From Nitrospirota bacterium (GTDB lineage: Bacteria; Nitrospirota; Thermodesulfovibrionia; Thermodesulfovibrionales; Dissulfurispiraceae): a stretch of DNA of 64,000 nucleotides. The DNA lies in NCBI GenBank assembly GCA_963710375.1, contig CAVPZX010000007.1, positions 22,826 through 86,825 on the forward strand, given 5' to 3'. Under the pieces are notes generated by a model, which searched no databases, was not told the DNA's origin, and saw only the letters and a list, made by a program, of their open reading frames with translations. The translations under genes and the position numbers were made by a program. Below are positions 31,244-59,439 of this stretch, one piece after another. Position 1 is the stretch's first letter. Every line of letters starts with the position of its first letter.

Positions 31244-32404
31244 TCAGTCTGTTTTTATCGGTAACTCGCTGAAACTTATATCTGGGTCGTTATCCGGGAT
31301 AATGCGTTTGGCCCCGATAAAATGCCTGAAATAGTAAGGGGTTTCGAGACTGTCGATCGTTATCTTTTTGGAAAGCGAAGATGCATGAATAAAAAGATTA
31401 TTCCCCAGGTATATCCCTACATGCGAGGGAAACGATGCATATGTTCTGAAAAAGACGAGATCTCCTGTTGCAAGGTCATCTTTGTCAACAGATTCACCGA
31501 TGTTAAACTGCTCACGGGCACTGCGCGGAATATTCTGTCCGATAAAGCTATACACTTTTTGTACATACGCAGAGCAATCCAGTCCGAAAGACCCGTTTCC
31601 GCCGAAACGGTAGGGGAGGTGAAGCATTTTTTTGGCAAAAAGAACCAGGCGTTCTTGTATGCTTAGATCTGCAAGAACATCTTCTGAAGTAGACAGTTCT
31701 TTGACTTCTTCCAGACGGGCTGAAGTAACGGCTGGTGTGGCTTTTTCAGCAGGAATGCCGTAAGCTTTAGTCGTCTCTTCCTTCACCTCGGTGTTTATTT
31801 TTGCAAGGTAAATTTTTTGACCTGCTTTTAGGGCATTGCCTTTCAACCCGTTTATTTCTTTCAGATCATCTCCGCTAAGCCTGAACCGCTTTGCAACTTT
31901 GCGGACAGTATCTCCTTTTCTGGCAACATATGTATTGGGCGTATGACTTCTGCGTTTGATTGAAATGTGCTGACCGACCTTTAATCTGCCTTTCTTAAGG
32001 TTATTGGCATTTCGTAATTCATTTACTGTGATCCCGTACTTTTTTGCAACCGATATTAACGTGTCTCCTTTTTTTACTATATGAACTGTCTCCTTGATTT
32101 CAGTTGATGGTTTATTAGAGACCAAATGTTTTGCCGGATATTTTTTGGAACTATGAGCGGCCTCTTTATTCCTGTGTTTTTTTTCAGAATTCGGAAGGGA
32201 CAGCTTTGTCCCTATACTTAATTTGGAAGACTTCAGCCCGTTGGATTCTTTAATTTCGGAAACGCTGATGCTGTACTTTTTTGAAATCCTCTGTAATGTA
32301 TCGCCCTTCCTTACCGAGTAAGAGATATGTGCTGATGATGTTGAAGCGAAAGAAACAAGAATGATAAAGGATAGTATTGCATATAAACCTTTCAGCTGTT
32401 TCAT
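31244..32404 (-). CDS. Secreted cell-wall hydrolase: 4 LysM repeats plus an NlpC/P60 domain
   Basis: Repeated YxVxKGDTLxxIAKKY..xxxLxxxNxL units. C-terminal GLDCSAYVQKVY ... GDLVFF ... SHVGIYLG (Cys/His catalytic pair). Confidence 0.85.
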   Translation of the reverse strand: MKQLKGLYAILSFIILVSFASTSSAHISYSVRKGDTLQRISKKYSISVSEIKESNGLKSSKLSIGTKLSLPNSEKKHRNKEAAHSSKKYPAKHLVSNKPSTEIKETVHIVKKGDTLISVAKKYGITVNELRNANNLKKGRLKVGQHISIKRRSHTPNTYVARKGDTVRKVAKRFRLSGDDLKEINGLKGNALKAGQKIYLAKINTEVKEETTKAYGIPAEKATPAVTSARLEEVKELSTSEDVLADLSIQERLVLFAKKMLHLPYRFGGNGSFGLDCSAYVQKVYSFIGQNIPRSAREQFNIGESVDKDDLATGDLVFFRTYASFPSHVGIYLGNNLFIHASSLSKKITIDSLETPYYFRHFIGAKRIIPDNDPDISFSELPIKTD

Positions 32405-32426
32405 GCTGCATCCTCCCGTTTAAAGC

Positions 32427-32452
32427 AGGTTAAGGCAAAGGTTAAGGTTGAG
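32427..32452. repeat. Word-repeat element, AAGGTT words, purine arm only
   Basis: aggttaaggcaaaggttaaggttgag. It uses the same words as 16261-16287. Confidence 0.5.
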
Positions 32453-32472
32453 AAAAACCCTTGACCTTTTTT

Positions 32473-33003
32473 TCATGCTGCATCTTCCTTTAAAAAATCA
32501 CTGATAGGCGGCAATTCGCTTAAACTTTTGAGACCAAAATATTGCAAGAACTCCTTTGTCGTACCATAAAGAAAAGGCCTGCCCGGCGTCTCCTTTTTGC
32601 CGACAATTTTAATAAAATGCTTATCCAGCACGCTCTTGATTGGACCATCAGAATTAACACCCCGCAGCTGGTCTACCTCGAGTTTTGTTACAGGCTGCTT
32701 GTATGCAATAATAGCGAGTGTTTCAAGGGCAGGCTGCGAGAGTTTGTTTGACTGGCTGACGTGTTTAAAACGCTTAATCCAGAGGGCATGATCCTGATCG
32801 GTGACCATCTGGTATCCCTCAGCAATACCAATGACAAGGATACCGGAATTCCTAGACTTATAGTTGGATGCCAATTCATCCAGCAGTTTCTTGATTTCCT
32901 GTTCAGGGAGATCCGTAGCCTTTGAAAGGCTGCTGATGGTTACGGGTTCTCCGGCAACAAATAGCAGCGCCTCAAGAACCGCTTTTTTAAGGGAATCCTC
33001 CAT
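32473..33003 (-). CDS. scpB: Segregation and condensation protein B
   Basis: LKKAVLEALLFVAGEPVTI ... ETLAIIAYKQPVTKLEVDQLRGVNSD ... GRPFLYGTTKEFL. Confidence 0.85.
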   Translation of the reverse strand: MEDSLKKAVLEALLFVAGEPVTISSLSKATDLPEQEIKKLLDELASNYKSRNSGILVIGIAEGYQMVTDQDHALWIKRFKHVSQSNKLSQPALETLAIIAYKQPVTKLEVDQLRGVNSDGPIKSVLDKHFIKIVGKKETPGRPFLYGTTKEFLQYFGLKSLSELPPISDFLKEDAA

Positions 33004-33099
33004 TGCTGAACATTATAACAAAGCGTTACTTGAAATTCAAACAAATAATTGGTTAAAGTAAACGAGTAGTGGGTCAAAGCAGCGCCGGAGAGAGCGTTT

Positions 33100-33157
33100 A
33101 CCACAGAGCCACTGAAACACAGAGGATAAAATGCCTGTATCTGTGCCACTGTGGCTG
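33100..33157. repeat. Degenerate word-repeat hairpin element, CACAGAG words
   Basis: accacagagccactgaaacacagagg faces cctgtatctgtgccactgtggctg. The complementarity is only partial. Confidence 0.35.
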
Positions 33158-33194
33158 ATTTTAACAATACAAATTACTTTGCGAGGGGACATAA

Positions 33195-33980
33195 ATGATG
33201 ATTAGATTTGCCGCAGTGCTTGCCGCAGTGATTTTATTTTTTAATGCAGTTCCAGGTCACACTTTCAGTGAGAGCGGATGTGACGGTGATTGCAAAAAAT
33301 GTCATTCACTCACCAATGAGGAAGCTATGGGCATGCTCAAAAAAATGAACTCTGCTGCAAAAGTTGTCGGTATCCAAATGAGTCCTGTTAAGGGACTATG
33401 GGAAGTCACCATTGACAATATGGGCAGGAAAGGCATTTTCTATACGGATTTTTCAAAGAAATTTATGATAGCCGGACCTATCGTAGAGCTTGATAATGGA
33501 TCCAACAGGACGCGGGAAAGCGTTGAAAGATTACAGAACAACAGGAAAGTAGATGTATCGAAGATTCCCCTCGGCAATGCCCTGGTATTAGGCAGTCGCA
33601 GCGCTCATAAAAAAGTGATTGTTTTTACCGATCCGGATTGCCCGTTCTGTGCAAGACTCGACAAGGAGATGAGAAAGGTGGTGGAGGAAAGGAAGGATAT
33701 CGCTTTTTATATAAAATTGTTCCCTCTGCCTGCGCATAAAGATGCATATTGGAAGGCCACGGCTATAGAATGCAAGAGGTCATTGAAAATGATGGAGGAC
33801 AATTTTGAAGGCAGACCTATCAGTAGGGACAACTGTGGCACAAAGGAAATTGACGACAATATAAAACTTGCCCAATCCCTCGGCTTTTTTGGTACTCCAA
33901 CACTGGTGCTCCCTGGTGGGACTGTGCACGAAGGAACGCTGCCGGCAGATAAGCTTATAGAGCTTATCAATGTTAAATAA
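33195..33980 (+). CDS. DsbC/DsbG-like periplasmic disulfide isomerase with an N-terminal Cys cluster that includes CXXCH
   Basis: Signal peptide, GCDGDCKKCH, DsbC N-domain-like (VKGLWEV ... IFYTD), thioredoxin domain with DPDCPFCARL. Confidence 0.8.
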   Translation: MMIRFAAVLAAVILFFNAVPGHTFSESGCDGDCKKCHSLTNEEAMGMLKKMNSAAKVVGIQMSPVKGLWEVTIDNMGRKGIFYTDFSKKFMIAGPIVELDNGSNRTRESVERLQNNRKVDVSKIPLGNALVLGSRSAHKKVIVFTDPDCPFCARLDKEMRKVVEERKDIAFYIKLFPLPAHKDAYWKATAIECKRSLKMMEDNFEGRPISRDNCGTKEIDDNIKLAQSLGFFGTPTLVLPGGTVHEGTLPADKLIELINVK

Positions 33981-34007
33981 GCTTATACAACTTATCAGTG
34001 GTAGAAA

Positions 34008-34856
34008 ATGAGAGCTTACCACGAGACGCTGATTGTTTTATTGGCGGCCTCGCTTATTTTAGTCGTACTTTTTTTTCTCGCCGTTTATTTGCCCCGCCTT
34101 TTCAAGAAAAAGACACAGGAACCAGAACCTATTGAAATTAATACTCTTATGGGTGCTTTCAGTGCGCTTGGCGGTGAAATCAACTCCCTTAAAGAACAGC
34201 TCATATTGAAGGAAAGGCTTGCCGCGCTAGGAGAGGTGGCAGCAGGCATTGCTCACGAGTTCAGGAACCCCATGGGCGTTATTGCCGGGTATGCTAAGCT
34301 GCTCCTTAAAGGGCTGGAGGGTTCTGACGACAAAAAGGAAATTGTCCAGGCAATCCTGAATGAAATTGAAGAGATGAACCGGGTCATGGAAGAACTGCTG
34401 AAGTTTTCAAAATCCGAACCAATAAACAGGATAGACATAGACCTGGTAAGTTTTATTACGGATACTGTAAAGAGCATGGGGCAGACGGCATCCGAAATCA
34501 AATTCTCACCTTGTGGTCCTGTTTCAATCAAGGGAGATAAGACCCTTCTCAGACAGGCCCTTAAAAATCTTCTTCAGAACGCTGTCCATGCAGGCGATAA
34601 GATAAGGATAGATGTCGAACACACTGACCTGTCCGGCAGGCACGGGGTATATATTGCCATTAAGGATAACGGTAAAGGCATACCGGAGAGTGATTTTAAT
34701 AAGATATTCATGCCATTTTATACTACAAAGAGCAGGGGCGCAGGAATCGGGCTGGCTCTTGTGCAGAAGATTGCATTAGCTCATGGGGGCAGCGTGAGTG
34801 TGAACAGTAAAGAAGGGAAGGGCAGCACGTTCCGGCTGTTTTTGCCGGTGAATTAA
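34008..34856 (+). CDS. Minimal membrane-anchored sensor histidine kinase (TM + HisKA + HATPase_c)
   Basis: One TM helix, H-box AAGIAHEFRNPM, N-box LLQNAVHA, G-boxes DNGKGI and GAGIGLAL. Confidence 0.85.
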   Translation: MRAYHETLIVLLAASLILVVLFFLAVYLPRLFKKKTQEPEPIEINTLMGAFSALGGEINSLKEQLILKERLAALGEVAAGIAHEFRNPMGVIAGYAKLLLKGLEGSDDKKEIVQAILNEIEEMNRVMEELLKFSKSEPINRIDIDLVSFITDTVKSMGQTASEIKFSPCGPVSIKGDKTLLRQALKNLLQNAVHAGDKIRIDVEHTDLSGRHGVYIAIKDNGKGIPESDFNKIFMPFYTTKSRGAGIGLALVQKIALAHGGSVSVNSKEGKGSTFRLFLPVN

Positions 34857-34872
34857 TGGACAAACATTAATT

Positions 34873-36225
34873 ATGCAAACTATTCTTATTGTTGAAGATC
34901 AGCAGAGCATGGCGGACATGCTCGCCAAGACGCTTGAGTCTGAAGGTTACACTGTTCGCTTAGCCATGACGTTAAGGGACGGGCTTGACGCGCTTTCCTC
35001 CGAGGACATCAGAGCGGTGATTACCGACCTGAGACTGCCTGACGGGGACGGAATGGAAATGGTGAAGGCAGCAAGGGAAGGGTCCCCTTTTATCCCGACA
35101 ATAGTTATGACCGGGTTTGGCAGTATTGAAATTGCGGTCAATGCAATCAAAAAAGGGGCTTACGACTTTATCACTAAGCCGTTTGACCCCGACCATCTTA
35201 TTTTGCTCCTTAGACGAGCCCTGGAAGAGCAGACTCTGCAGAAGGAGAATCTTGTCCTTAAGCACGAATTCTCAAAATTTCTTAAAATGCCTGAAATTAT
35301 AGGGCTGAGCAGCCAATGGACTAATATAATGGAAAAAATCAAAAAAGTGGCGCCGCTCAAAACTACGGTACTTGTTCTTGGTGAAAGCGGAACTGGAAAG
35401 GAACTCGTTGCCAGGGCCATCCATTATCTAAGCCAGAGGGCCAAATATTCTTTTATTGCAGTTAATTGCGCTGCAATACCTAAAGATTTAATTGAAAATG
35501 AAATATTCGGACACGAAAAGGGAGCTTTTAGCGGGGCTGCTGAGATCAAGCCAGGCAGGTTTGAACTTGCCGACAGGGGCACTATATTCCTTGATGAGAT
35601 CGGTGATATGGAACTCTCATTGCAGTCAAAACTGTTGCGTGTGCTCCAGGAAAATGAGTTTGAACGCGTGGGCGGAACAAAAACCGTACGTGTCGATTTG
35701 CGCGTTATCGCGGCAAGCAACAAGAATCTCGAAAAAGAGGTTTCAGGAGGACACTTCAGGGAGGACCTGTTTTACCGGTTGAATGTTTTCCCTATAATTA
35801 TTCCACCCCTGCGGGAACGGAGGGAAGATATTATTCCGCTCGCAAGGCATTTTATCGGTATGTTTTCATCCGAAATGAACAAAAAGGCTCCGCTGCTTTC
35901 TCCTGAATCCGAAAGGATGCTGCTGGAGAATGAATGGAGGGGAAACGCAAGAGAACTGAAAAACATTATAGAACGGGCGGTTATCCTATGCGACGGTCAG
36001 GTTCTCCAGCCGGAGTATTTCAATTTTGTCAAATGCGTACCAGAAGAACAGATAGGTGCTGAAGCCCCTTTATCTGAAATTGCCCAATTTGCAGTTAAAA
36101 CCGCTGAAAAATCCCGGATAGAAACCGTTCTTACTCAAACAGGCGGCAATAAGAGCAGGGCAGCCGAAATACTTAAAGTAAGTTATAAAACATTGCTTAC
36201 TAAGATCAAGGATTACAGGATATAA
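34873..36225 (+). CDS. Sigma-54-dependent response regulator (NtrC/PilR class: REC + AAA+ + Fis HTH)
   Basis: ILIVEDQ ... DLRLPDGDG; GESGTGKELVARAIH; EKGAFSGA; ELADRGTIFLDEIGDM; C-terminal GNKSRAAEILKVSYKTLLTKIK. Confidence 0.9.
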   Translation: MQTILIVEDQQSMADMLAKTLESEGYTVRLAMTLRDGLDALSSEDIRAVITDLRLPDGDGMEMVKAAREGSPFIPTIVMTGFGSIEIAVNAIKKGAYDFITKPFDPDHLILLLRRALEEQTLQKENLVLKHEFSKFLKMPEIIGLSSQWTNIMEKIKKVAPLKTTVLVLGESGTGKELVARAIHYLSQRAKYSFIAVNCAAIPKDLIENEIFGHEKGAFSGAAEIKPGRFELADRGTIFLDEIGDMELSLQSKLLRVLQENEFERVGGTKTVRVDLRVIAASNKNLEKEVSGGHFREDLFYRLNVFPIIIPPLRERREDIIPLARHFIGMFSSEMNKKAPLLSPESERMLLENEWRGNARELKNIIERAVILCDGQVLQPEYFNFVKCVPEEQIGAEAPLSEIAQFAVKTAEKSRIETVLTQTGGNKSRAAEILKVSYKTLLTKIKDYRI

Positions 36226-36296
36226 TTAAAACATCTAATAGGTTATAGGTTTTTCCAATTACTCATCACCTGTGACCTATTTATATGAATTGTCTT

Positions 36297-36308
36297 ACAT
36301 AATTATGT
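36297..36308 (+). promoter_or_regulatory. Perfect 12-bp palindrome, candidate enhancer (UAS) for the sigma-54 activator
   Basis: ACATAATTATGT lies about 76 nt upstream of the candidate -24 element. Confidence 0.3.
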
Positions 36309-36382
36309 GTAACTAGTTGTATACTGCTATATTTCCAATCCGTAATTCCCTGATTTTAACAGCAAAAACATTTTCCGCTAAC

Positions 36383-36398
36383 CGGCATTGAAATTGCT
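36383..36398 (+). promoter_or_regulatory. Candidate sigma-54 (-24/-12) promoter of the PilY1-like operon
   Basis: cGGCATtgaaaTTGCT compared with the consensus TGGCAC-N5-TTGCW. The GG (36384-36385) and GC (36396-36397) have canonical spacing. It lies directly downstream of a sigma-54 activator gene. Confidence 0.5.
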
Positions 36399-36415
36399 CT
36401 ATAAACTATGAAATC

Positions 36416-39400
36416 ATGAAAAAACGCTATCAAATTCCGGCAATTATTTCGTTGTCTATTGTTGTCGTGCTGTCATTGGGTTTCCTGTCTGATTCTATGT
36501 CGAGTTCATCTATGAATACATATTGTTACACTCCTCCCTTTGTCACCACAGCTGTGCCGCCGCTGGTAATGCTTGTCATGTCAAAGGACCACAAGCTCTT
36601 TTTTAAGGCTTATGACGATGTTGTCGATCTTGACGGAGACGGGATCCCCGATGTCACTTATAAAGACACAATTACCTATTTCGGATATTTCGATTCCGGC
36701 AAGTGCTACTCCTACATTTCTGCCAACAACCGCTTTGAGCCTCAGGTATTGGCTTCGGGCACTAACAATCATTATTGTTCAGGTATGTGGAGCGGCAACT
36801 TTCTTAATTGGGCCACGATGGCAAGGATCGATATCCTGCGTGCGGTGCTGTATGGAGGCAAGCGCGATATAGATCAGAGTGGCGGAATAACTGTTTTAAG
36901 CAGAACGACACTCACTCAGGACGCGCACTCCTGGGCCAAGGTGTACATCGGCGCCGACATTGCGCAACTTACCCCCGCCGGCGGCGCGAGCAATCAAACC
37001 GCTATAACGATATGTAATACAAATACAAGCAACTCAGGAAATCAGGCCAACTGGTCTCTTATGAACTTCTATTGGGGAAACGCTGCAAATGGACCTGCTT
37101 CGCCTATAAATACTGGTGGTCAATACTATCCTTACGCTGCTGCCCTGGATGGCGGCGTGCAGTGTACAAAGAAATACAACACGGGACCTAATGCAGGTCC
37201 CGCCCTGCCAACAATCCCGTCACCCGGATCAGCGGCCAACAGCAATGGTGGTTCTTATTATGTCAATGTCTTAGTGTGCAATCCAACGGTTGGGCTGGAA
37301 TCAAACTGTCTCCAGTACGGCTCGTCCACGCTATCATATAAGCCTGCCGGGGTCATGCAGACATTGGGACTGAATCCCATAACCAATGCGCCGCGAATGT
37401 ATTTTGCTCTCATCACCGGAAGCTATAATAATAATCAGAGCGGAGGAGTGTTAAGAAGTAATTTTACCGATACGACCCAGGAGATCAATACCAGCGACGG
37501 CACAATCAATACAAGTACCTCAAAGATTATAAAGACCATTGATTTGCTTCAATTGATCTATTATGATTTCACGAATCATACATGGGCCAGTTCACCCGGC
37601 AACTGTGGCTTGAGCGCGACCTTTACCCAACCGAACTGCCCGGACTGGGGTAACCCCATGAGTGAGATGTACTATGAAGCGCTCAGGTATTTTGCCGGAA
37701 AAAGCGGTCCCACATCACAGTTTTCAGCTTCACCTCCGGACCCAACGTCAGTGTTTAATACAGATCTATATGCCACAGGTGTAACTTCACTTCCGGTTGC
37801 CTCCTCGTGGGCCAATCCTTTCAGTTCATCAGGAGGCAACTATCCTTCCTGTTCCAAGCCTTTTATTCTTATGCTAAGCGATGTCTACTCCTCGTGGGAC
37901 TCCGACCAACTACCAGGAGTTTATTCCTCCTGGCAAGCCACGATAACCCCCAATAACGATATCGGCGCCCCCGGCGTTTCTACCATGTTCAGCAATAGCT
38001 ATTCCAATATGAATTCTCTTGAAGGAATATCCAGCGCCTTCGTGGGACAATTCGGGGCCACAAATACCGGCAATTGCTCCCAAGAGCCTTCTTCTGGGAC
38101 CGGGTTTGATTTCGGCCAGGCACGCGGACTCTGCTCTGAAGAGCCTACGAAACAGGGCTCATACTATATGGCCGGGCTGGCCTGGTGGGCGCATACGACA
38201 GGCGTTACTAATCCTTCTGTCAGCAATAACCTGCAGGTTAATACCTATGCAGTGGTCACTCCTTCCGACGTACCTAATCTCAGTTTCGCAGTCGGTTCCA
38301 ATACTGTTTTTCTCCAGCCTGACTTTAACGTTATCTCCTATACGGGTCTTACCGGCTCCAAAGGACAGTTTGTCGACTTTAAAATATTGGCGACGCCTAA
38401 TATCAGTTGTCCATCGCTTGACACGGAATGTACCACTGAAACCACTACTAACGGCTATCAGTATGGATACGAAGTTGCCTATGATGATTCCGGACAGGGG
38501 AATGACTACGACCTTGATGTGCGCTGGAGATTGTTTGTCAAGACAAACCCGACGGCAAATACAATAACAATCAAAACCAAGGGCGAGTATTATGCGGCAG
38601 GCGCTAACGATGGGTCCGGGTATTTGATAACCGGTGTTAACAACGGGGGGGGATATATTGAACTCCAGGGAGCAGGAGACGGCGTGAGTTTTACGGGATA
38701 TTGCAACGGAGCGGCATGCCCTTCAACTTGCAATGGAGGCGGAGAATGCTCACATGGCAGTTCATCCTCAACACCCGGTGTTGTATATGTTGAAAGGACT
38801 TTTAGTGTTACCGGGTCGTCGGCAAGCTTTACGCATGACCCCTTCTGGTACGCTGCCAAATACGGAGGGTTTAACAACAATAATCCACTTGCACCATACC
38901 CTGCCCTGACGAGCCAATGGGACACTACCGGAGACGGTATGCCTGATAATTATTTTTATGCCTCCAATCCGCTCCAGTTGCAGCAGCAGCTCGTTAATGC
39001 ATTCAGCGCAATCCTCAACCAGGCCTCATCAGGCACCACTGTTGTGAGCCTGCCCCCATCTCAGACTATATCATCCAATATCGTGGCCCAGGCCTATTTC
39101 TTTCCCGAGCAGCAGGATAACGCTGTAAGGCTTACATGGCTCGGATATCTGAGAACGTTATGGGCCGACGCTGTGTCAAATATCAGGGAGAACACTGCCG
39201 GCACGGATATCCTGGATATCATACAAGACAAAATAGTGGCGTTTCTTTATAACTCGGCGCAGCAGCAGTTTGTGGCAACTGTTTATACTGATACGAACAG
39301 CAGTTCCGGCCTGAACAGCTGCACATCTACTACAAAGGATATTTCTGCCGTGGCGCCGATTTGGGAAGCAGGCTCGATACTTCAAAACACTGACCCAGCC

Positions 39401-41590
39401 AACAGAACCATTTATACTTGGATTGACAGCCAGACGTCAGGCGCAACAGGTGTGGTTGACTCCGGAGAATTTGTACAGTTTAGTTTAAGCGGTACAGGCG
39501 GTTTAAGTTCCTCGCAGCTCACGGCACTGAGCGGTTACTGGACGTATAGCGACATAGGAGCCTGCAACAGCGCTTGTGCGAATTCGGTTGTTCAATATGT
39601 AAGGGGGTATGACCTGCCCAGTCCTTCCGGTTCCCTGTTCAGATTAAGGCAATCGGATTCCACAGGCAGTAATGTTATCACATCATGGAAACTGGGCGAT
39701 ATCATTTTTTCAACTCCGCAAATTGACCCCAATGGTAAGGTCAACGGATATGATACGCGATATGGCGACACAACTTATGGGGCATTTATTAACAGTACTA
39801 TCAAGAATAATCCGCCTGTTGTATTTGTCGGCGCCAATGACGGGATGGTGCATGCATTCATCCTGGGGACGCTTTCCGGCATCAGCCCACCGGTAGGAAA
39901 CGGCACTTCGTCGTTAGAGGTAGCCCAGTTGTCACCTTCACCAGGAAAGACGCTAGGAAGTGAGGCATGGGCATATATTCCATGGAATGTAATACCGTAT
40001 CTCAGGTGGTATTGCCAGAACAATTATTGTCATATCCCTATGGCTGATGCCACATTTACGATTGTTGACGCCTCTACAGGCACCCCAACAAGTCCGGCCA
40101 GTGCTGCAGCTGTGAAGCCCTCTGATGGTTCTACCTGGCGGCGCTTGCTTATAGGCTCCATGGGGTTCGGCGGTACACCGATCACTGTAGGAAGTCCAAG
40201 CGTGACCTTCAGCTCTTCTATTTTTGTTATGGACATTACCAACCCTCTCTCTCCGGTCCTTTGGTGGGAGAAGCAGATGCCTGACAATACACTGACTGAA
40301 GGGATTCCGGGTATCGTAAGACTCGGGGCAGGCAATGCTAACGGCAGCTGGTATCTGGTTATGGGAAGCGGAGCGACGACAATAACCACTGCAAGTCTCA
40401 CTTATCCTGCAAATCCAAAAATTTATGTCTTTAATCTCCTTGATGGCAGTCAGGCAGCGTTTGACGCGAACAATGTACCTGGTTTGCCCATTACAAATGC
40501 CGAGGGCGCTACTAATAATACGGCGGCCAATGTAGCTGTCGGAGATTTAGAGTCTGCTGATCTTGATTATCCGGCTGGCGATTACCAGACTGATGTTGTC
40601 TATTTCGGCACCTATAGTGAAACAGCGGGAGGACTTTACAGGTTAAGGATACGGAACGGATCGACAGGAAACACCCCCAATTACATTGCCGGCCCGTCAA
40701 ACTGGCTGATATCAGCAGTTGTCAACCCCGGACACCCTGTCTTTGCCGCTCCTTCATTAGCCATAGACGCTGCCCAAAACCAATGGCTTTATTTCGGGAC
40801 CGGCCTTTATGTTACTTCAAGCGATACAAGTGTCACTAACGAGCTGTTGTATGGTGTGAAAGAGTCCACTACTTGCTGGCAGAGCGGTGGTTCAGGCTGC
40901 AATTATACAAATTTTATAAACATGACCAATGCTGCTTACACCGGTGCCAGGGCACTGACATACTCCTGTGAATGTACGGGCGGCGCAACCGTCCTTACAG
41001 GAAAGTGCGACGGCCTTGGCAACTGTCCCAATGCCACCAATCCTGGCTGTCCTTCCAATGAAGGCTCCCTGGTGGTAACGTCAGTTGCAGGCGCGACATT
41101 GAGCGGCTCAGGCGCTAGCTGCAATGGCGCAAGCTGCGATGGCTTAAAAGATACGGCAGCAGCCAACTGTCTTGTATGTGCACTGAACAGCTATGCCGGG
41201 TGGACGCAGACTATTACAGGCGCTAAGATTTATGCTTCACCTCTTGCCTACGGCGGCATTGTAAGTGCCACTGAATTTGCTCCTAGCGGGAACATCTGCC
41301 AGGCTGGAGGGACTTCCAGTCTTATATCACTCCAATTTAATACCGGGGCCCCTTATAACCAGCCCACTATTTTGTCAGTAGCAGGGACCAGCGGTTCCAC
41401 CACTAACCTTAGCGTTAATAAGACGGTCCAAATTTCTCCAGGCGCTTCGCCCTTCAAACAGAGCCTTGTTCCGGTCCAGACCGGCAACACCTTCAAAGTG
41501 TTTACCCAGTCAGCAGGAGGCATTGCCTCAGTCTCTGTAAATCCTAGTATTTCGATGAGCAATCAATATATATTATGGATGACAAAATAA
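36416..41590 (+). CDS. pilY1: Very large secreted PilY1-like type IV pilus tip/adhesin protein (1724 aa)
   Basis: Signal peptide. The C-terminal half carries the PilY1/PilC propeller hallmark WKLGDIIFSTPQI ... PPVVFVGANDGMVHAF ... EAWAYIPWNV and later TDVVYFGT..GGLYRL. It is followed by four prepilin-type genes. Confidence 0.75.
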   Translation: MKKRYQIPAIISLSIVVVLSLGFLSDSMSSSSMNTYCYTPPFVTTAVPPLVMLVMSKDHKLFFKAYDDVVDLDGDGIPDVTYKDTITYFGYFDSGKCYSYISANNRFEPQVLASGTNNHYCSGMWSGNFLNWATMARIDILRAVLYGGKRDIDQSGGITVLSRTTLTQDAHSWAKVYIGADIAQLTPAGGASNQTAITICNTNTSNSGNQANWSLMNFYWGNAANGPASPINTGGQYYPYAAALDGGVQCTKKYNTGPNAGPALPTIPSPGSAANSNGGSYYVNVLVCNPTVGLESNCLQYGSSTLSYKPAGVMQTLGLNPITNAPRMYFALITGSYNNNQSGGVLRSNFTDTTQEINTSDGTINTSTSKIIKTIDLLQLIYYDFTNHTWASSPGNCGLSATFTQPNCPDWGNPMSEMYYEALRYFAGKSGPTSQFSASPPDPTSVFNTDLYATGVTSLPVASSWANPFSSSGGNYPSCSKPFILMLSDVYSSWDSDQLPGVYSSWQATITPNNDIGAPGVSTMFSNSYSNMNSLEGISSAFVGQFGATNTGNCSQEPSSGTGFDFGQARGLCSEEPTKQGSYYMAGLAWWAHTTGVTNPSVSNNLQVNTYAVVTPSDVPNLSFAVGSNTVFLQPDFNVISYTGLTGSKGQFVDFKILATPNISCPSLDTECTTETTTNGYQYGYEVAYDDSGQGNDYDLDVRWRLFVKTNPTANTITIKTKGEYYAAGANDGSGYLITGVNNGGGYIELQGAGDGVSFTGYCNGAACPSTCNGGGECSHGSSSSTPGVVYVERTFSVTGSSASFTHDPFWYAAKYGGFNNNNPLAPYPALTSQWDTTGDGMPDNYFYASNPLQLQQQLVNAFSAILNQASSGTTVVSLPPSQTISSNIVAQAYFFPEQQDNAVRLTWLGYLRTLWADAVSNIRENTAGTDILDIIQDKIVAFLYNSAQQQFVATVYTDTNSSSGLNSCTSTTKDISAVAPIWEAGSILQNTDPANRTIYTWIDSQTSGATGVVDSGEFVQFSLSGTGGLSSSQLTALSGYWTYSDIGACNSACANSVVQYVRGYDLPSPSGSLFRLRQSDSTGSNVITSWKLGDIIFSTPQIDPNGKVNGYDTRYGDTTYGAFINSTIKNNPPVVFVGANDGMVHAFILGTLSGISPPVGNGTSSLEVAQLSPSPGKTLGSEAWAYIPWNVIPYLRWYCQNNYCHIPMADATFTIVDASTGTPTSPASAAAVKPSDGSTWRRLLIGSMGFGGTPITVGSPSVTFSSSIFVMDITNPLSPVLWWEKQMPDNTLTEGIPGIVRLGAGNANGSWYLVMGSGATTITTASLTYPANPKIYVFNLLDGSQAAFDANNVPGLPITNAEGATNNTAANVAVGDLESADLDYPAGDYQTDVVYFGTYSETAGGLYRLRIRNGSTGNTPNYIAGPSNWLISAVVNPGHPVFAAPSLAIDAAQNQWLYFGTGLYVTSSDTSVTNELLYGVKESTTCWQSGGSGCNYTNFINMTNAAYTGARALTYSCECTGGATVLTGKCDGLGNCPNATNPGCPSNEGSLVVTSVAGATLSGSGASCNGASCDGLKDTAAANCLVCALNSYAGWTQTITGAKIYASPLAYGGIVSATEFAPSGNICQAGGTSSLISLQFNTGAPYNQPTILSVAGTSGSTTNLSVNKTVQISPGASPFKQSLVPVQTGNTFKVFTQSAGGIASVSVNPSISMSNQYILWMTK

Positions 41591-42183
41591 AAGGGTTTAG
41601 TGTTCTTGAACTCGTTATGGTTCTTGCCATTGCGGCCACACTAATTACAATCGCGGGCATGTGGGCTGTTTCGTTTATAGCAGACGCCACACTGTCCCAG
41701 ATGCGTGATCAATTATTGCAGAATATAGAAGAGGCAAGGTCGCAGTCCATTTCTTCGGTGCCCTACGGGATAGAATTCAATAGCGCAACCGCAGCTACTA
41801 ATTATGCGCTCATCCGGTTCCCGGGCGGGACATGCAGTTCTACAGGAACTCCGTGTGCAACAACTTTGAATAGTCTGGGCGACGGTTGCAATGCGGCGGC
41901 AAACGAATACTGTGTATTCTCTCAGAGCGGGAGCTTTATGGTTACTGGCGGTATAACGCCGACCACAATGAAGACAGTAGCCTTTACTTCGGGCTATATT
42001 GCTACTCTTTCATTTACAGGTTCCCCCACCGGCAATTATATCTGGTTTGACCGCAAAGGCATGCCGCATGATAACAGTTGGAACACGCCCACAGGGGAGA
42101 CAACTATAACAGTTTCAAAAGGCGGCGCTGCAAACAAGTCAATAACTATCGATACGGCAGGCAAAGTCACGTATGAGAGATAA
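41575..42183 (+). CDS. Prepilin-type minor pilin, FimT/GspH-like
   Basis: MDDKIKG/FSVLELVMVLAIAATLITIA is the canonical G-F-x-x-x-E cleavage/methylation motif. Overlaps the pilY1-like stop by 16 nt. Confidence 0.75.
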   Translation: MDDKIKGFSVLELVMVLAIAATLITIAGMWAVSFIADATLSQMRDQLLQNIEEARSQSISSVPYGIEFNSATAATNYALIRFPGGTCSSTGTPCATTLNSLGDGCNAAANEYCVFSQSGSFMVTGGITPTTMKTVAFTSGYIATLSFTGSPTGNYIWFDRKGMPHDNSWNTPTGETTITVSKGGAANKSITIDTAGKVTYER

Positions 42184-42946
42184 GGGCTCGGGAATAAACA
42201 GCTTGTGCATTGGTGCCTCCCAGAGAGGTTTTACACTTATAGAAATACTTATTTCTACCGGCATTTTGCTCATTGCAGTTGCCGGGTTTCTTGCGTGGGC
42301 AGCCAATGTTGTAAATCAGCGCGCAGGACTCTCAAAGCGCAATTTCGCATACAATATTGCCGTTGACGTAAGCGACCGTCTTGCGAAGCTCAGCGGGACC
42401 AATGTTTTTTTATTGCCTAACAGCAGCGGAACCATTAAGTATTTAGGACTGGACAGCAACGGCAATCTGCTGACGTGTTTAGCAGGAGTTCTTACGTCCA
42501 ATGGTTTGACCTTCGATGCAACAGGCATGACTCAATATACCAATCCATGGAACGGGACCATGAATAATCTGTTCCTTTATCACGACAGCCTGGGGACATT
42601 CAGTGCGAGCGCACCATTGACAACAACTGCCAATGCGTTTATAGATCATCCCAATTCGAGTGATGTCGCGAATTTGGGCTTACCTGACGACATCAACAGC
42701 TTAATCAATCCGATACGGCGTTCTGCAAACGGGGTGACCTACTATGTAGCATGGAGTGTGGCCTATATGCCATGCGCAACAGCGCCTACGAATTTGGTGA
42801 AGATTTTCATAACGGTTTACTGGATAGATCCCGAGCCCTCTTTTTCATCAACTATCACTCAGGTCAACAACTACATCCAGTCACACCCACTTAGTGTTAA
42901 AAATGTTTCTATTACACTTGACAAGTCGTTGACGGCCACGCAATGA
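42173..42946 (+). CDS. Prepilin-type minor pilin, PilV-like
   Basis: ..SQRG/FTLIEILISTGILLIAVAGF. The leader is 18 aa from the ATG; an in-frame TTG would give a 9-aa leader. Confidence 0.7.
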   Translation: MRDKGSGINSLCIGASQRGFTLIEILISTGILLIAVAGFLAWAANVVNQRAGLSKRNFAYNIAVDVSDRLAKLSGTNVFLLPNSSGTIKYLGLDSNGNLLTCLAGVLTSNGLTFDATGMTQYTNPWNGTMNNLFLYHDSLGTFSASAPLTTTANAFIDHPNSSDVANLGLPDDINSLINPIRRSANGVTYYVAWSVAYMPCATAPTNLVKIFITVYWIDPEPSFSSTITQVNNYIQSHPLSVKNVSITLDKSLTATQ

Positions 42947-43974
42947 AAGGAATTAAAAATAAGAGAGGCACAAGCCTTGTTGAATTGATGATAGCGATGG
43001 CAATATTCGCTCTTATACTCGGCGTAATGTTTTCTCTTTATGCAACCATGATCAAAACATCCGCATCTACCAGGAAGATCGTAAAAGTGGAGGGAGAGAT
43101 TACCAATACAGTATGGCCACTTTTCAAAGAGATAGAATCTGCAGGTTTTGGAGTGCCGGCTAATAGCTTCGGTGGCAGCTGCACTCCTGAAATCAATTAC
43201 ACAGGCGGTGCAGCTAATGGAGTTCTTACTATTTACAGCACTACTACGGCTACCCAGACGTCTCCAATCCAGACGGCTGCAGGTTCATGGAGTTTTATTC
43301 TTGGGTCGTCATGTACGGTATGCATGGCGGGGACTGGATGTCCGGGAGGCGGGTTTAATCCCGGAGGCGGGTTTAATAATGGAGATATTGTATCAATAAT
43401 AAGTCCTTCCGACAAAAGCAGTTTAATAACCACCGGTCCGTTCACAACAACAGTGGCAGTCGGCGGCACGCTCACAGGGTGCGTGTCAACCACCTGGCCG
43501 GGCAATATCGCTTACTTTATTAGCCCTGGAGGCGGTCCGACAGGCAGTTGTTACAGCACCATATACACTCTCTCTGCAACACCTACAAAGACCTGCGCTT
43601 CCGGAACTCAGCAATTGACGAGAAGCAGCGTTGCAGTAGGAAGCGCTGCAAATCCCCAACCAATGCTCGACTGTGTGCTTGCTTTTTCCAGTATCTTCGG
43701 CTGTATAGATACGAGCGGCAACGTTACCTGGCAGACAGGGAACACATGCACTTTTTTGAACTCTAACGGAAATTTTAATCCGAGATTTATAAGGATCGGA
43801 CTCGTGGTGCAGGACAGTAACCAAAACGAGTATGCCGGGCCGCCGCAAACCAGTATAACACTTTTCGGCGACACTCCACCATCAACACAATATACAGTCT
43901 CATTAAATACTACACAGGGGACATACAGATGGAGAACAATCGAACGTACTATATCTTTAAGGAATCTGGAGTAG
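42943..43974 (+). CDS. Prepilin-type minor pilin, PilW-like
   Basis: MKGIKNKRG/TSLVELMIAMAIFALILGV. Size (343 aa) and position fit PilW. Confidence 0.7.
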   Translation: MKGIKNKRGTSLVELMIAMAIFALILGVMFSLYATMIKTSASTRKIVKVEGEITNTVWPLFKEIESAGFGVPANSFGGSCTPEINYTGGAANGVLTIYSTTTATQTSPIQTAAGSWSFILGSSCTVCMAGTGCPGGGFNPGGGFNNGDIVSIISPSDKSSLITTGPFTTTVAVGGTLTGCVSTTWPGNIAYFISPGGGPTGSCYSTIYTLSATPTKTCASGTQQLTRSSVAVGSAANPQPMLDCVLAFSSIFGCIDTSGNVTWQTGNTCTFLNSNGNFNPRFIRIGLVVQDSNQNEYAGPPQTSITLFGDTPPSTQYTVSLNTTQGTYRWRTIERTISLRNLE

Positions 43975-44504
43975 CGCTTGTAAATACGCTTATTATAGTG
44001 GCAGCGAGCCTGCTGCTCATCGGGGGCATCTATTACCTGACCGGCGGCGGCTTTAAGGTAGCGCTAATAAATAAAAAATTCTCTTCCACCCAGGAGGCTG
44101 CGGCAGGCGGGGTTCAGGAAGCAACAGAGGCCTTAAGGCAGCTCATCAATGATTACAACAACGGCGCCGGCGGCTTTACGCTAAGTAATAACATGGGGTT
44201 TCAAACCAATTATGCAGGCGCAGCGAACGTAATATTTTATTGCCAGAATACTCCACCTACGGCAGCACTTCGCGCAAAAACCGCTGATGGCAGGTACCAG
44301 ATAGATATGACGATCGCATGCCTGGGCCAAAAACCGGTTCCCGGCTCCGGAGGTGCCATGATCTTCCCTCCGCCCCCTTCAGCCAGCGGCGGAGGTGGAA
44401 CAGCGTTTTACTTTTATTCCATAACAGCCCAGGCGCAAGATATACTTGAAACAAAAAACCCCAGTATAGGCCAGGTACAAGCTGTTTACCGGCTGACGAG
44501 ATAA
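43929..44504 (+). CDS. PilX-like minor pilin (PilX_N-type hydrophobic N-terminus, no Glu5)
   Basis: ..KESGVALVNTLIIVAASLLLIGGIYYL. Last position in the minor-pilin set. Confidence 0.6.
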   Translation: MENNRTYYIFKESGVALVNTLIIVAASLLLIGGIYYLTGGGFKVALINKKFSSTQEAAAGGVQEATEALRQLINDYNNGAGGFTLSNNMGFQTNYAGAANVIFYCQNTPPTAALRAKTADGRYQIDMTIACLGQKPVPGSGGAMIFPPPPSASGGGGTAFYFYSITAQAQDILETKNPSIGQVQAVYRLTR

Positions 44505-44511
44505 AAAGATC

Positions 44512-44661
44512 GAAGGTGTGAAGATGAGAAGGTGCGAAGTTGAGAAGAGGCAAATCACAAACGCGAAGACTTCTGTCGCAACTTCACAACTTCGCACCTT
44601 CTCATCTTCATCCTTTGACGTTGGCTCACCTTCACACCTTCACAACTTCGCACCTTCGTCC
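44512..44661. repeat. Word-repeat hairpin element, GAAGGTGY/GAAGTTGR words: one purine arm and two pyrimidine arms
   Basis: 44519-44542 (tgaagatgagaaggtgcgaagttg) is perfectly complementary to 44587-44610. A second pyrimidine arm lies at 44628-44661. Confidence 0.8.
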
Positions 44662-45405
44662 TTTAGGCGCCGCCTGCGGTTAATTGCCTCACTTGGGTTA
44701 GTGGTAATCCTTGCAGTACCGGGGTGTAAAGGGAAGGGCGGTCCTCCTGTGCAATCAACTTCTCCGAATGTTTCTGAACAGGCCACAGGAACATCCGGTG
44801 TTGACGCAAAGGGCGAGACCGGAACAATACAAAAAATTATAGTCTCGGGCGCGCCTGCTGCGAATAACACTGCTCTAATCTCTCACATAGAGATTACCCC
44901 GAAAGCCCCCAAGATCGGAGATACGATTACGATAAACCTTATTCCCCAGGCAGGGGTGTTGCTTTCATCAGTTCCAGTTGCCTTTGAATGGAGGAAAAAC
45001 GGAGAAGGTCTGTCAGAGACATCAAACTCGCTCGCGGTAGACAGCAGGTTTAAAAGGGGTGACAAGGTCGAGGCGACCGTAACTGTCGACAGCGGAAAAG
45101 GCCCCAAGCAGTCTTGGCTCGCCTCGGTAGTAATAGCCAATTCTCCACCCGTGATTACTCCGGCAACTGAATTGGTGAAAGTAAACGGCAGCACATTCTC
45201 TTTCAAGGTGAATGCCAGTGATGCGGATGGAGACCCGTTAACATATACTCTAAAATCAGGTCCGCCTGGTACTACTGTTGACCCTGCAACAGGCAAAGTG
45301 ACTTTTACAGTACCGGCTGACAATAAAACAAGCTCGCAGATAGCGGTGCTGGTTTCGGATGGCCATGGCGGTGAGGCTATCTTCAATTTTGAGATGGGGA
45401 AATAA
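44518..45405 (+). CDS. Lipoprotein with a C-terminal Ig-like (He_PIG/cadherin-like) domain; the start codon is uncertain
   Basis: Lipobox ILAVPGC. C-terminal NSPPVITPA ... NASDADGDPLTYTL ... VSDGHGGE. The ORF-track N-terminus (GTG 44518 / ATG 44524) lies inside a repeat hairpin. Confidence 0.6.
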   Translation: MKMRRCEVEKRQITNAKTSVATSQLRTFSSSSFDVGSPSHLHNFAPSSFRRRLRLIASLGLVVILAVPGCKGKGGPPVQSTSPNVSEQATGTSGVDAKGETGTIQKIIVSGAPAANNTALISHIEITPKAPKIGDTITINLIPQAGVLLSSVPVAFEWRKNGEGLSETSNSLAVDSRFKRGDKVEATVTVDSGKGPKQSWLASVVIANSPPVITPATELVKVNGSTFSFKVNASDADGDPLTYTLKSGPPGTTVDPATGKVTFTVPADNKTSSQIAVLVSDGHGGEAIFNFEMGK

Positions 45406-46865: not shown

Positions 46866-48011
46866 ATGGAGAATAATAGAGTTTTCCTCTGCCTCATCGC
46901 AGCAGGCGCGCTTTTACTGCTCACGTGTTCGGGATTCGGTTGCCGGCGCGGTGCAGCAGATGGCGATACACACAATGTAATCGTGAAATCTCCCGATCCC
47001 GGTGTGCTCCAAATGGAACACCCGGAGCAGTTCCCCCTGGTAGAGGCTGAAGCCAGGAAAGTTGCTGATGAAACCCCTGTCAACGGGGTAGTCGCTCCGG
47101 ATGTGAACCGCTCCGTAGCCGTATTGTCGCTGAGCGGCGGCCGTGTAGTGGACATTAAAGCCAGACTTGGAGACGACGTAAAAAAAGGCCAGATCCTGTT
47201 AAGGATACATAGCCCCGACCTCGCCGCTGCATTCTCTGATTTCGAAAAGGCACAGGCCGATGAGATGCTGTCCCGTAAGCAATTAGAGCGTGCCAAGGGC
47301 CTCTTTGCAAATGGGGCCAACGCTGCAAAGGACCTGGAGGCCGCCCAGAATGCTGAGGACAAGGCCAAGGTTGATCTGAAGATCGCGGCTGACCATGTCC
47401 GTGTGCTAGGCGGCGACCCTGATCATTTCTCTCCTGTTCTCGATGTTAGGGCGCCCATTTCCGGTACAATCGTCGAGCAGAATGTTACGGGCGGCACAGG
47501 GGTCCGTTCCCTGGATGCTACCCCAAACCTTTTCACCATCGCTGACCTGTCGCGCGTGTGGGTCTTGTGTGACGTTTACGAAGATGACATCTCACGGGTG
47601 CATTTAGGGGATACAGCCGAGGTCCGTCTTAATGCATTTCAAGACAGATTGTTCCGCGGCATAGTAAGTAACATCAGCCGGGTAATGGACCCAAACATAC
47701 GGTCGGCAAAGGTCCGCATCGAACTGGACAACCCGGGTCTGGTTATGCGTTCGGGTATGTTTGTAACAGCGGTGATTCGTTCTCCAAAAAGTATCGAACG
47801 GCCTGTTCTGCCCGCTTCCGCTATCGTGCGCCTTCATGACAAGTACTGGGTCTTCCAGCCTTTAGGCGGCAATCGATTCCGGAGAACAGAGGTACAGACC
47901 GGGCCTGAGGTGAACGACACACTCCAGCAAATTCTCTCGGGCTTAAAAGTTCATGACAAGGTGGTAGTCAACGCTCTGCAGTTTTCGAGTGCCTCAGAGG
48001 CAGCAAAATAA
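46866..48011 (+). CDS. RND efflux periplasmic adaptor (membrane fusion protein), operon 1
   Basis: Lipoprotein-like N-terminus LLLTCSGFGC. Biotinyl/lipoyl-like GRVVDIKARLGDDVKKGQILLRIHSPDL, a coiled-coil hairpin, and a beta-barrel region. Confidence 0.9.
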   Translation: MENNRVFLCLIAAGALLLLTCSGFGCRRGAADGDTHNVIVKSPDPGVLQMEHPEQFPLVEAEARKVADETPVNGVVAPDVNRSVAVLSLSGGRVVDIKARLGDDVKKGQILLRIHSPDLAAAFSDFEKAQADEMLSRKQLERAKGLFANGANAAKDLEAAQNAEDKAKVDLKIAADHVRVLGGDPDHFSPVLDVRAPISGTIVEQNVTGGTGVRSLDATPNLFTIADLSRVWVLCDVYEDDISRVHLGDTAEVRLNAFQDRLFRGIVSNISRVMDPNIRSAKVRIELDNPGLVMRSGMFVTAVIRSPKSIERPVLPASAIVRLHDKYWVFQPLGGNRFRRTEVQTGPEVNDTLQQILSGLKVHDKVVVNALQFSSASEAAK

Positions 48012-51149: not shown

Positions 51150-51156
51150 AAACACA

Positions 51157-51237
51157 GAAGTTGAGAAGTTGGGAAGTTGGGAAGTTGGGATTTTGGGATT
51201 TTGCTCAGCTTCACATCTTCACATCTTCGCAACTTCA
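51157..51237. repeat. Word-repeat hairpin element, GAAGTTGR words, at czcA-like/OMF junction 1
   Basis: gaagttgagaagttgggaagttgggaagttggga, then ttttgggattttgctcag, then cttcacatcttcacatcttcgcaacttc. Confidence 0.75.
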
Positions 51238-54840: not shown

Positions 54841-54910
54841 CTTCACATCTTCACATCTTCGCAACTTCGGTTTTTTCTCATCTTCCCAACTTCTCAACTT
54901 CTCAACTTCC
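54795..54910. repeat. Word-repeat hairpin element, GAAGTTGR words, at czcA-like/OMF junction 2
   Basis: 54811-54830 (gagaagttgagaagttggga) is perfectly complementary to 54884-54903. The inner arm 54841-54868 is identical to 51210-51237. Confidence 0.8.
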
Positions 54911-58144: not shown

Positions 58145-58146
58145 GG

Positions 58147-59340: not shown

Positions 59341-59393
59341 AGTGTACCACCTTTCTTTCCGCTCAAATGAAGTATATGCTTTAAACATGGTGC

Positions 59394-59426
59394 TATAATA
59401 AAAAATAAAACTTACACCAAACTTAC
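59394..59426. promoter_or_regulatory. Divergent control region: extended -10 (TGcTATAAT) for the two-component operon, plus two 11-bp-phased direct repeats
   Basis: TGCTATAAT at 59391-59399. AAACTTAC at 59408-59415 and 59419-59426. Read on the minus strand this is GTAAGTTT-N3-GTAAGTTT, followed 7 nt later by TATTAT. Confidence 0.4.
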
Positions 59427-59439
59427 GGGTAGATAGCGA

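Follow-up and report, generated by a model that had tools for sequence, protein, structure and literature searches.

We analysed a gene cluster at positions 33195-45405 of a 64-kb stretch of DNA from a Nitrospirota bacterium of the family Dissulfurispiraceae (contig CAVPZX010000007.1). The whole stretch is referred to as the window, and labels of the form L001 denote the related loci used for comparison. The cluster encodes a PilY1-family protein of 1724 amino acids (aa), four minor pilin-like proteins and a lipoprotein with an immunoglobulin-like (Ig-like) domain, preceded by a DsbC-like isomerase, a histidine kinase and a sigma-54 response regulator. The genes, coordinates and overlaps given in a preliminary description of this DNA were all reproduced exactly by an open reading frame (ORF) map. 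The features, with the evidence for each, are as follows.

33195-33980, plus strand: DsbC-like gene (ORF map, Pfam)
34008-34856, plus strand: histidine kinase gene (ORF map, Pfam)
34873-36225, plus strand: sigma-54 response regulator gene (ORF map, Pfam)
36294-36314, plus strand: partly palindromic conserved block CTTACATAATTATGTGTAACT (conservation in L001 and L005)
36383-36398, plus strand: -24/-12 promoter-like element cGGCATtgaaaTTGCT (sigma-54 motif, position, conservation)
36416-41590, plus strand: PilY1-family gene, 1724 aa (family profile against 3HX6, homologs)
41575-42183, plus strand: minor pilin 1, FimU/GspH-like (prepilin leader, N_methyl, weak GspH match)
42173-42946, plus strand: minor pilin 2, PilV-like (prepilin leader, N_methyl, weak PilV match)
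42943-43974, plus strand: minor pilin 3, PilW-like, 343 aa with 10 Cys (prepilin leader, borderline Pfam PilW match)
43929-44504, plus strand: minor pilin 4, PilX/GspK-like (position, N-terminus without Glu5)
44518-45405, plus strand: lipoprotein with Ig-like (Big_9/He_PIG) domain, last gene of the operon (Pfam Big_9, conserved lipobox Cys)

From the PilY1-family gene through the fourth minor pilin gene, the coding regions overlap by 16, 11, 4 and 46 nucleotides (nt), as calculated from their coordinates, and relatives repeat the 16-nt and 46-nt overlaps. The latter, between the PilW-like and PilX-like genes, is exact in seven loci of different orders (the window, at 43929-43974, L001, L002, L003, L015, L084 and L085), which implies a conserved stretch with predicted out-of-frame dual coding. 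The PilY1-family gene and the four prepilin-type genes are translationally coupled.

The PilY1-family protein, the minor pilins and the lipoprotein

The 1724-aa protein comprises a signal peptide, a Cys-rich N-terminal region of ~1090 aa and a C-terminal beta-propeller (approximately residues 1090-1700). A total of 1948 homologs were detected, with source names of the PilC/PilY family. Among those listed, the alignment in most cases covers almost the entire protein, and the homologs carry PF28373 ('PilY1_homolog_dom', the N-terminal region in relatives) together with PF05567. A family profile built from 21 full-length homologs matches the crystal structure of the Pseudomonas aeruginosa PilY1 C-terminal domain (3HX6, chain residues 31-516) with E=2e-42, and the AlphaFold model of residues 1040-1724 is a beta-propeller, with a predicted local distance difference test score (pLDDT) of 82 and a predicted template modelling score (pTM) of 0.86. 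The closest match in the species collection, at 47%, comes from a Nitrospirota metagenome-assembled genome (MAG).

The model of the N-terminal 1090 residues has a pLDDT of 76, and a Foldseek search with it returned nothing below E=0.1 and no PDB counterpart. This search supports neither a vWA nor a lectin assignment, and the proposal of a Pseudomonas- or Legionella-like vWA domain in this region was dropped. Two family motifs of the N-terminal region, WSGNFLNW and WGNPxxEMxY, retrieve 598 genomic loci, including pilY1 genes of Legionella, Marinobacter, Endozoicomonas and Pseudomonas, those of Legionella and Pseudomonas being located inside fimU-pilVWX-pilY1 operons. Since the N-terminal motifs retrieve known pilY1 genes, homology to PilY1 extends to the whole 1724-aa protein and not to the propeller alone. 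On the evidence of the 3HX6 profile match and this N-terminal homology, the protein is a true member of the PilY1 family; the preliminary description, which had called the giant protein PilY1-like and suggested profile searches as a check, was right in this respect. The 'dozens' of Cys that it had reported amount to 35, and at 16 of these positions Cys is shared by 15 or more of the 21 homologs.

The products of the genes at 41575, 42173 and 42943 begin with canonical prepilin leaders with Gly at -1 and Glu at +5 (MDDKIKG/FSVLE, ...QRG/FTLIE and ...KRG/TSLVE, respectively, where the slash follows Gly-1), and these are the only three such motifs in the six frames of the window. The N-terminus of the 43929 protein, SG/VALVN, has Gly-1 and a hydrophobic helix with Asn at +5, and therefore no Glu5; pilins of the PilX/GspK type are known to lack this residue. 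The four small proteins had been described as minor pilins, and a check of their type III signal peptides supports this, with three canonical leaders and a fourth without Glu5.

Assignment to individual minor pilin types was made from weaker matches. The 41575 protein matches Pfam N_methyl and NCBIfam GspH (TIGR01708, E=9.2e-5, 22.5 bits against a cut-off of 80), while a profile of its syntenic orthologs matches the alpha1-N helices of PDB pilins at 6e-10, with FimU (4IPU) scoring E=0.94. The 42173 protein matches N_methyl (5.3e-6) and, below the cut-off, NCBIfam PilV (TIGR02523, 1.1e-4), and the corresponding ortholog profile finds the PDB pilin helices at 2.7e-4. For the 42943 protein, Pfam PilW (PF16074) is matched at 6.8e-5 over profile positions 6-124 of 124, with 23.3 bits against a cut-off of 26, and the ortholog profile reaches the pilin helices at 1.1e-6. 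The 43929 protein has no Pfam match (including PF14341, PilX_N), and its ortholog profile has no PDB match; its position, size and GIALV-type N-terminus are kept in 14 loci. A Pfam scan of 53 syntenic pilin orthologs gave N_methyl in 39, PilW in 7 (best 8.4e-8), GspH (PF12019) in 3 (best 1.5e-8) and PilX_N in 1 (E=0.0018). PilW membership thus holds at the family level and is borderline for the 42943 sequence by itself. The predicted order FimU/GspH, PilV, PilW, PilX is well supported for the first three genes and positional for the fourth.

The last gene encodes a protein with a Big_9 domain (2.4e-9, Pfam), a likely start at ATG 44524 and the lipobox LAVPG/C70, whose Cys, following a hydrophobic stretch, is invariant in eight orthologs. 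Homologs end the operon in most of the Nitrospirota loci examined, in both gene orders. The N-terminal region of this protein is unusually long, with ~50 residues before the lipoprotein signal peptide, and is much shorter in relatives. The direct DNA repeat CACAACTTCGCACCTTC (44586-44602 and 44636-44652) lies in the part of the gene that encodes this region.

Gene order and neighbourhood in related loci

No major pilin, PilB/T/C/D or PilM-Q was found among the other window ORFs of at least 112 aa (50 of 57 candidates scanned), the remaining scanned ORFs being housekeeping, regulatory or RND efflux genes. These scans, together with the six-frame search for prepilin motifs, bear out the earlier statement that the window has no major pilin, assembly machinery or prepilin peptidase. 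In relatives, by contrast with the detached module of the window, equivalent genes are found close to pilus machinery. The locus of Pelotalea chapellei (L060) consists of a sigma-54 regulator, DsbC, PilY1, four pilins, PilM, PilN, PilO, PilP and a secretin, and its PilY1 belongs to the same clade as that of the window. In Thermodesulfovibrio (L003), pilins and a secretin are located within 10 kb of the module, and in L002 a major-pilin-like gene directly follows the operon.

These neighbourhoods bear on a stand-alone surface-display system, which the preliminary description had offered as an alternative and in which the four pilin-like proteins alone would export or present the giant adhesin without a pilus machine. 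The absence of machinery genes from the window is compatible with such a system, as are the operon's own regulators and folding factor, but nothing supports it as such. Prepilin leaders require a peptidase, and polymerisation requires a PilC/PilB-type platform and an ATPase, neither peptidase nor assembly platform being present in the window. Furthermore, orthologous modules are located within or beside complete pil gene sets, and the separate clusters of Myxococcus serve one machine (PMC7541494). We consider stand-alone display to be hardly credible. The other suggestion of the preliminary description, a priming or tip complex for a pilus encoded elsewhere, is the most likely reading in view of the modules beside pilMNOPQ (L060), pilins and a secretin (L003) and a major-pilin-like gene (L002).

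The order of the genes was surveyed in 76 non-redundant related loci, 63 of which could be typed, with 13 left undetermined (truncated or unclear). The Pseudomonas order, with four pilins followed by pilY1, is found in 38 loci, pilins on both sides in 8, and PilY1 first in 17. The PilY1-first loci span Nitrospirota (Thermodesulfovibrio, Ca. Magnetominusculus and MAGs), Geobacterales (Pelotalea), Syntrophobacterales, Syntrophorhabdaceae and Thermocrinis, and in a rough neighbour-joining tree without support values their PilY1 proteins form one large and one small clade. The same order is found in Geobacter sulfurreducens, where descending locus tags denote GSU2039 PilL, GSU2038 PilY1-2, GSU2037 FimU, GSU2036 PilV-2, GSU2035 PilW-2 and GSU2034 PilX-2, followed by PilMNOP (GSU2032-2029), with GSU2029-2039 annotated as a type IV pilus cluster (PMC6964889). 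The gene order had initially been regarded as unusual. This does not hold, since G. sulfurreducens GSU2038-2034 shares it and the suggested check of neighbourhoods found the five-gene PilY1-first arrangement in at least 17 of the 76 related loci and throughout a PilY1 clade. PilY1-first is a clade-wide variant, present in annotated genomes and in bona fide type IVa pilus loci.

The survey also bears on the kind of filament that the module would cap. It could be a short pseudopilus of the type II secretion system (T2SS) kind rather than an adhesive, retractile pilus, in which case PilY1 would act at the secretin or within the periplasm. In favour of this, Geobacterales, in which the module lies beside pilMNOPQ, belong to the PilY1-first clade; the order of the four minor pilins corresponds by homology to GspH-I-J-K; and no retraction ATPase is encoded in the window. 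A secretion role has reportedly been proposed for the PilA-N/C filaments of Geobacter. Nevertheless, PilY1 proteins go with type IVa pili and not with T2SS, and the conserved N-terminal region of 1090 aa is easier to explain as an exposed adhesin, so that a pseudopilus appears improbable, and the tip complex of a type IVa pilus is preferred.

Some relatives carry additional genes next to pilY1. Directly upstream of pilY1, L002 (9582-9974) and L003 (9678-10004, with a 4-nt overlap) have an ORF for a small secreted protein (108-130 aa) with EEY[KR]K at its C-terminus, and no counterpart of this ORF was found in the window. A 108-aa ORF upstream of pilY1 in L001 looks spurious and was discarded, since the start assigned to the pilY1 of that locus is an internal Met. 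The pilY1 gene is separated from that of the first minor pilin by a gene for a 126-aa 23S_rRNA_IVP/bAvd-like protein in L085 (14031-14411) and L088 (17400-17780), and by DUF5647 and DUF7718 in L084 (14567-15135). Proteins of the bAvd family are linked to diversity-generating retroelements; near the bAvd-like insertions, no reverse transcriptase was found.

Elsewhere in the window, two complete RND efflux systems, each with a membrane-fusion protein, an AcrB-type pump and an outer-membrane factor, are located in opposite orientation at 46866-52677 and 53368-59514, the second adjoined by an OmpR-type two-component system (59440-61489). A DUF2844 and DUF3443 gene pair (16381-18058; DUF3443 E=3.8e-119) is followed downstream by a GGDEF diguanylate cyclase gene (18407-19186).

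The DsbC-like isomerase, the two-component pair and the upstream region

The periplasmic DsbC-like protein begins with a signal peptide, followed by the cysteine motif C29-x3-C33-x2-C36-H37, the dimerisation domain DsbC_N and a thioredoxin domain whose active site is C149-P-F-C152. Membership of the DsbC family is indicated by the Pfam matches to PF10411 (1.5e-10) and PF13098 (Thioredoxin_2, 2.5e-16), and a family profile matches the structure 4ILF at 9.7e-20 across both domains, as well as 1EEJ, with the alignment running from profile position ~50 onward. Since the structural alignment starts only there, the CxxxCxxCH motif represents an N-terminal extension. It follows the signal peptide directly (GC-DGD-C-KK-CH, 33279-33305, residues 29-37) and contains a haem-c-type CxxCH. 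Across 34 DsbC homologs, no variation is seen at C33, C36, H37, CPFC or the C193/C214 pair, and the conservation of C29 is at least 90%. The closest named source of a homolog is Dissulfurispiraceae (78% identity), and the Geobacterales copies retain CxxxCxxCH.

The preliminary description had suspected a link between this gene and the Cys-rich PilY1-like protein, and the distribution of the gene agrees with it. DsbC homologs adjoin PilY1-first operons in 12 loci from two phyla and in different orientations: upstream on the same strand in the window, L001, L005, L015, L058, L060, L070 and L071, and convergent downstream in L084, L085, L087 and L088. None of 46 Pseudomonas-order operons has such a neighbour (Fisher p=9e-4, 63 typed loci). 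A limited search of the searchable literature found no description of the partnership between CxxxCxxCH-DsbC and PilY1-first operons.

In L015 (5427-6185) and L058 (5035-5844), a second DsbC paralog without CxxxCxxCH lies beside pilY1 and has an in-frame stop in its active site (DPD*PYC); it is probably a selenocysteine UxxC enzyme.

The kinase consists of HisKA (4.7e-15) and HATPase_c (3.6e-27) domains (Pfam), one N-terminal transmembrane helix and a short linker, with the H-box AHEFRNP, and Pfam detects no sensor domain in it. Kinases of the same type (281-285 aa) directly follow the DsbC gene in L001, L005 and L089. The regulator has Response_reg (2.6e-25), Sigma54_activat (5.9e-70) and HTH_8 (3.2e-10) domains (Pfam), with Walker A (GESGTGKE), Walker B, the GAFSGA loop and a Fis-type helix-turn-helix, and it occupies the same position upstream of pilY1 in L001, L005, L060 and L071. 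Against NCBIfam it falls below every equivalog cut-off, with AtoC and NtrC as the best matches. It is therefore a generic NtrC-family activator. Hence, of the earlier label 'NtrC/PilR-class activator', the NtrC-family part stands on the Pfam domains, and the PilR class is not supported, no equivalog cut-off being reached. Orthology to PilS-PilR is not supported: the single-helix kinase lacks a PilS-type membrane domain, the regulator lacks an equivalog match, and there is no adjacent pilin gene in the PilSR sense. The pair may act like PilSR, although its sequences do not show it to belong to that class.

It may be asked whether DsbC, the kinase and the regulator are mere neighbours of the pilus genes, forming a general envelope redox or stress unit that is not specific to them. 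This would be consistent with L089, where positions 5005-10505 encode NlpC/P60, ScpB, DsbC, a 285-aa kinase and a sigma-54 regulator, a block syntenic with window 31244-36225, followed by ribD and without a pilY1 operon. It would also fit L086, which has DsbC without nearby pil genes, and the lack of a specific equivalog match for the regulator. Since the block occurs in L089 without pilY1, the regulator pair and DsbC are not strictly dedicated to the pilY1 operon, and the triad is a unit of its own; as ribD takes the place of the pilY1 operon at the junction, the pilus operon was inserted or lost exactly there. On the other hand, DsbC stands beside PilY1-first operons in 12 loci of two phyla with varied orientation and beside no Pseudomonas-order locus, the regulator is located upstream of DsbC-pilY1 in Geobacterales too, and -24/-12 elements precede the operon. 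A mere neighbourhood is thus rather unlikely, and a functional connection of the triad with the pilus operon is preferred.

The -24/-12 element cGGCATtgaaaTTGCT lies in the 190-nt gap before pilY1, has the correct GG-N10-GC spacing and ends 17 nt before the ATG. L001, which is 82% related, has an identical GGCATTGAAATTGCT block, and L005, which is 47% related, has TGGTATcaaaaTTGCT at the corresponding position. Sites scoring 8-10 of 11 precede the PilY1-first operons of L015, L057, L063 and L083 and, in L060, the DsbC gene; L003 and L071 yielded no such element. Overall, 7 of 12 PilY1-first loci have a site of at least 8/11 within 400 nt upstream, against ~0.16 expected per locus (background 0.39 per kb). 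In four loci (the window, L001 and L005, and L060 before the DsbC gene), the element ends 12-17 nt before the start codon.

The partly palindromic block CTTACATAATTATGTGTAACT is located ~70-90 nt upstream of the -24/-12 element and is nearly identical in L001, while the rest of the intergenic region is ~76% identical; L005 also retains its core, TTACATAATTAT. The block is proposed as a candidate site at which the activator would bind. Inside the regulator gene, at 35609, there is a strong -24/-12-like match that occurs at the same position in the L001 and L005 regulators. It was attributed to conserved coding (ELSLQ) and rejected as a promoter.

A probable tip-complex operon and its known counterparts

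Taken together, the locus is probably a two-component-regulated, sigma-54-dependent operon for the priming or tip complex of a type IVa pilus, the motor, platform, secretin, major pilin and prepilin peptidase of which would be encoded in other parts of the genome, and we hold this reading with good confidence. Several observations weigh against it. The 64 kb contain no pilus machinery, major pilin or peptidase, and the partner pilus is assumed. By itself, the 1724-aa protein gives a propeller Pfam match of 20.6 bits, under the cut-off of 28.1, for which reason the PilY1 assignment needed the family profile, and a single-sequence phmmer search against the PDB gave no match. Foldseek with the C-terminal model, which we used only as evidence of fold class, returned generic seven-bladed propellers with low TM-scores, 3HX6 not being among the top 50. 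The calcium-binding loop of the propeller is altered, reading D-L-D-Y-PAG-D-Y-Q-T-D instead of the family's DxDxDxxxD (DNNSDGVAD in P. aeruginosa); the family consensus found at this loop is DxD/NLDYxxD, and the window and its closest relatives have a 3-residue insertion with acidic ligands present. The PilX assignment of the 43929 protein rests on position and the missing Glu5. Finally, cGGCATtgaaaTTGCT is a two-mismatch match, and matches to TGGCAC-N5-TTGCW are not enriched across the window (37 against 37.6 expected), so the promoter call rests on position and conservation. The element would leave a leader of only ~5-7 nt, and the 17-nt gap to the pilY1 ATG (36399-36415) has no evident Shine-Dalgarno sequence; this tight spacing suggests a near-leaderless transcript or another role for the element. 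To these may be added the L089 and L086 loci described above.

By analogy with Pseudomonas and Myxococcus, a PilD-type peptidase would cleave the prepilins, which would then stack in the inner membrane in the order FimU, PilW, PilV, PilX. PilX would hold the PilY1 propeller, with the major pilin polymerising underneath, and the Cys-rich N-terminal part of PilY1 would end up at the pilus tip as an adhesin. PilY1 would, as in Myxococcus (PMC7541494), be required for priming and be sited at the tip. From its neighbourhood, the DsbC-type isomerase would act in the periplasm to fold the PilW-like pilin, with its 10 Cys, and the Cys-rich PilY1, and the Ig-domain lipoprotein would be an accessory envelope component. 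More speculatively, the sensor-less kinase would read the membrane pool of pilins or of PilY1, as PilS and FimS do in Pseudomonas.

A further proposal, which we regard as tentative and somewhat doubtful, is that the CxxxCxxCH-DsbC would be a haem- or metal-loaded isomerase and a maturation factor dedicated, in anaerobes, to Cys-rich tip complexes of the PilY1-first type. It would then be a functional parallel to TfcP, a CxxCH protein co-encoded with PilY1.1 of Myxococcus that promotes the calcium binding of PilY1.1 (PMC8833165). The isomerase, the sensor-less kinase and the sigma-54 activator would jointly make up a feedback circuit coupling periplasmic redox or the membrane pilin pool to the production of the pilus tip.

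The locus adds a Nitrospirota-type organism to those bacteria whose type IVa pili are built with a tip complex of PilY1 and minor pilins, and the PilY1-first layout is a clade-wide alternative shared with Geobacterales, not an oddity. The operon type is ordinary, though little studied. Modestly new are the DsbC partnership with its CxxxCxxCH motif, the terminal Ig-domain lipoprotein of most Nitrospirota loci examined and the -24/-12 element ~17 nt before pilY1, the first of these being the most interesting residue of the locus. The DsbC partnership, the lipoprotein and sigma-54 control are potentially useful leads, because PilY1 folding, its calcium or redox dependence and feedback regulation are active questions in the pilus field. 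To our knowledge, anaerobic lineages are essentially unstudied in these respects.

Among known systems, the T2SS tip GspH-GspI-GspJ-GspK shares with the window four (pseudo)pilins in the same order, the last without Glu5; it has no PilY1, and similarity of the window pilins beyond the N-terminal helix is not detectable by sequence. The fimU-pilVWXY1Y2E operon of P. aeruginosa has the same five core components, and the C-terminal PilY1 propeller is homologous to that of the window (3HX6). In P. aeruginosa, however, PilY1 comes last rather than first, and PilE and PilY2 are not present in the window locus. The window PilY1 exceeds that of P. aeruginosa by ~560 aa, contains far more Cys and has the 3-residue insertion in its calcium loop. 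The FimS-AlgR two-component system, encoded beside the Pseudomonas operon, responds to PilY1 and the minor pilins (PMC5979040). AlgR is of the LytTR type, whereas the window regulator is a sigma-54 activator.

The order PilY1, FimU, PilV, PilW, PilX of the window is identical to that within GSU2039-GSU2034 of G. sulfurreducens (PMC6964889), a cluster that was annotated but 'not investigated more closely' (PMC6964889). In Geobacterales, the module runs straight into pilMNOPQ (GSU2032-2028), whereas that of the window is detached from the machinery. The upstream order also differs, being DsbC, kinase, regulator in the window and regulator, DsbC in the Geobacterales locus L060, and the Ig-domain lipoprotein is an addition in the window. 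GSU2039, named 'PilL', is presumably the DsbC homolog.

Myxococcus xanthus has three clusters apart from its main pil locus, each with PilY1 and FimU, PilV, PilW and PilX (PMC7541494), and the encoded proteins both prime the pilus and occupy its tip (PMC7541494, PMC13190605). As in the window, these are separate operons of overlapping genes, serving a pilus machine encoded elsewhere (PMC7541494, PMC8833165). Their transcription is likewise governed by an NtrC-like response regulator, HsfA, which binds the promoters of pilY1.1 and pilY1.3 (PMC9109919), although it is not encoded adjacent to them. TfcP is a periplasmic redox-type CxxCH cytochrome c, whereas the window protein is a DsbC, and PilY1.3 has a vWA domain, none being detected in the window PilY1. 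The Myxococcus clusters and HsfA thus show that a detached tip-complex operon under a sigma-54-type activator is a known design.

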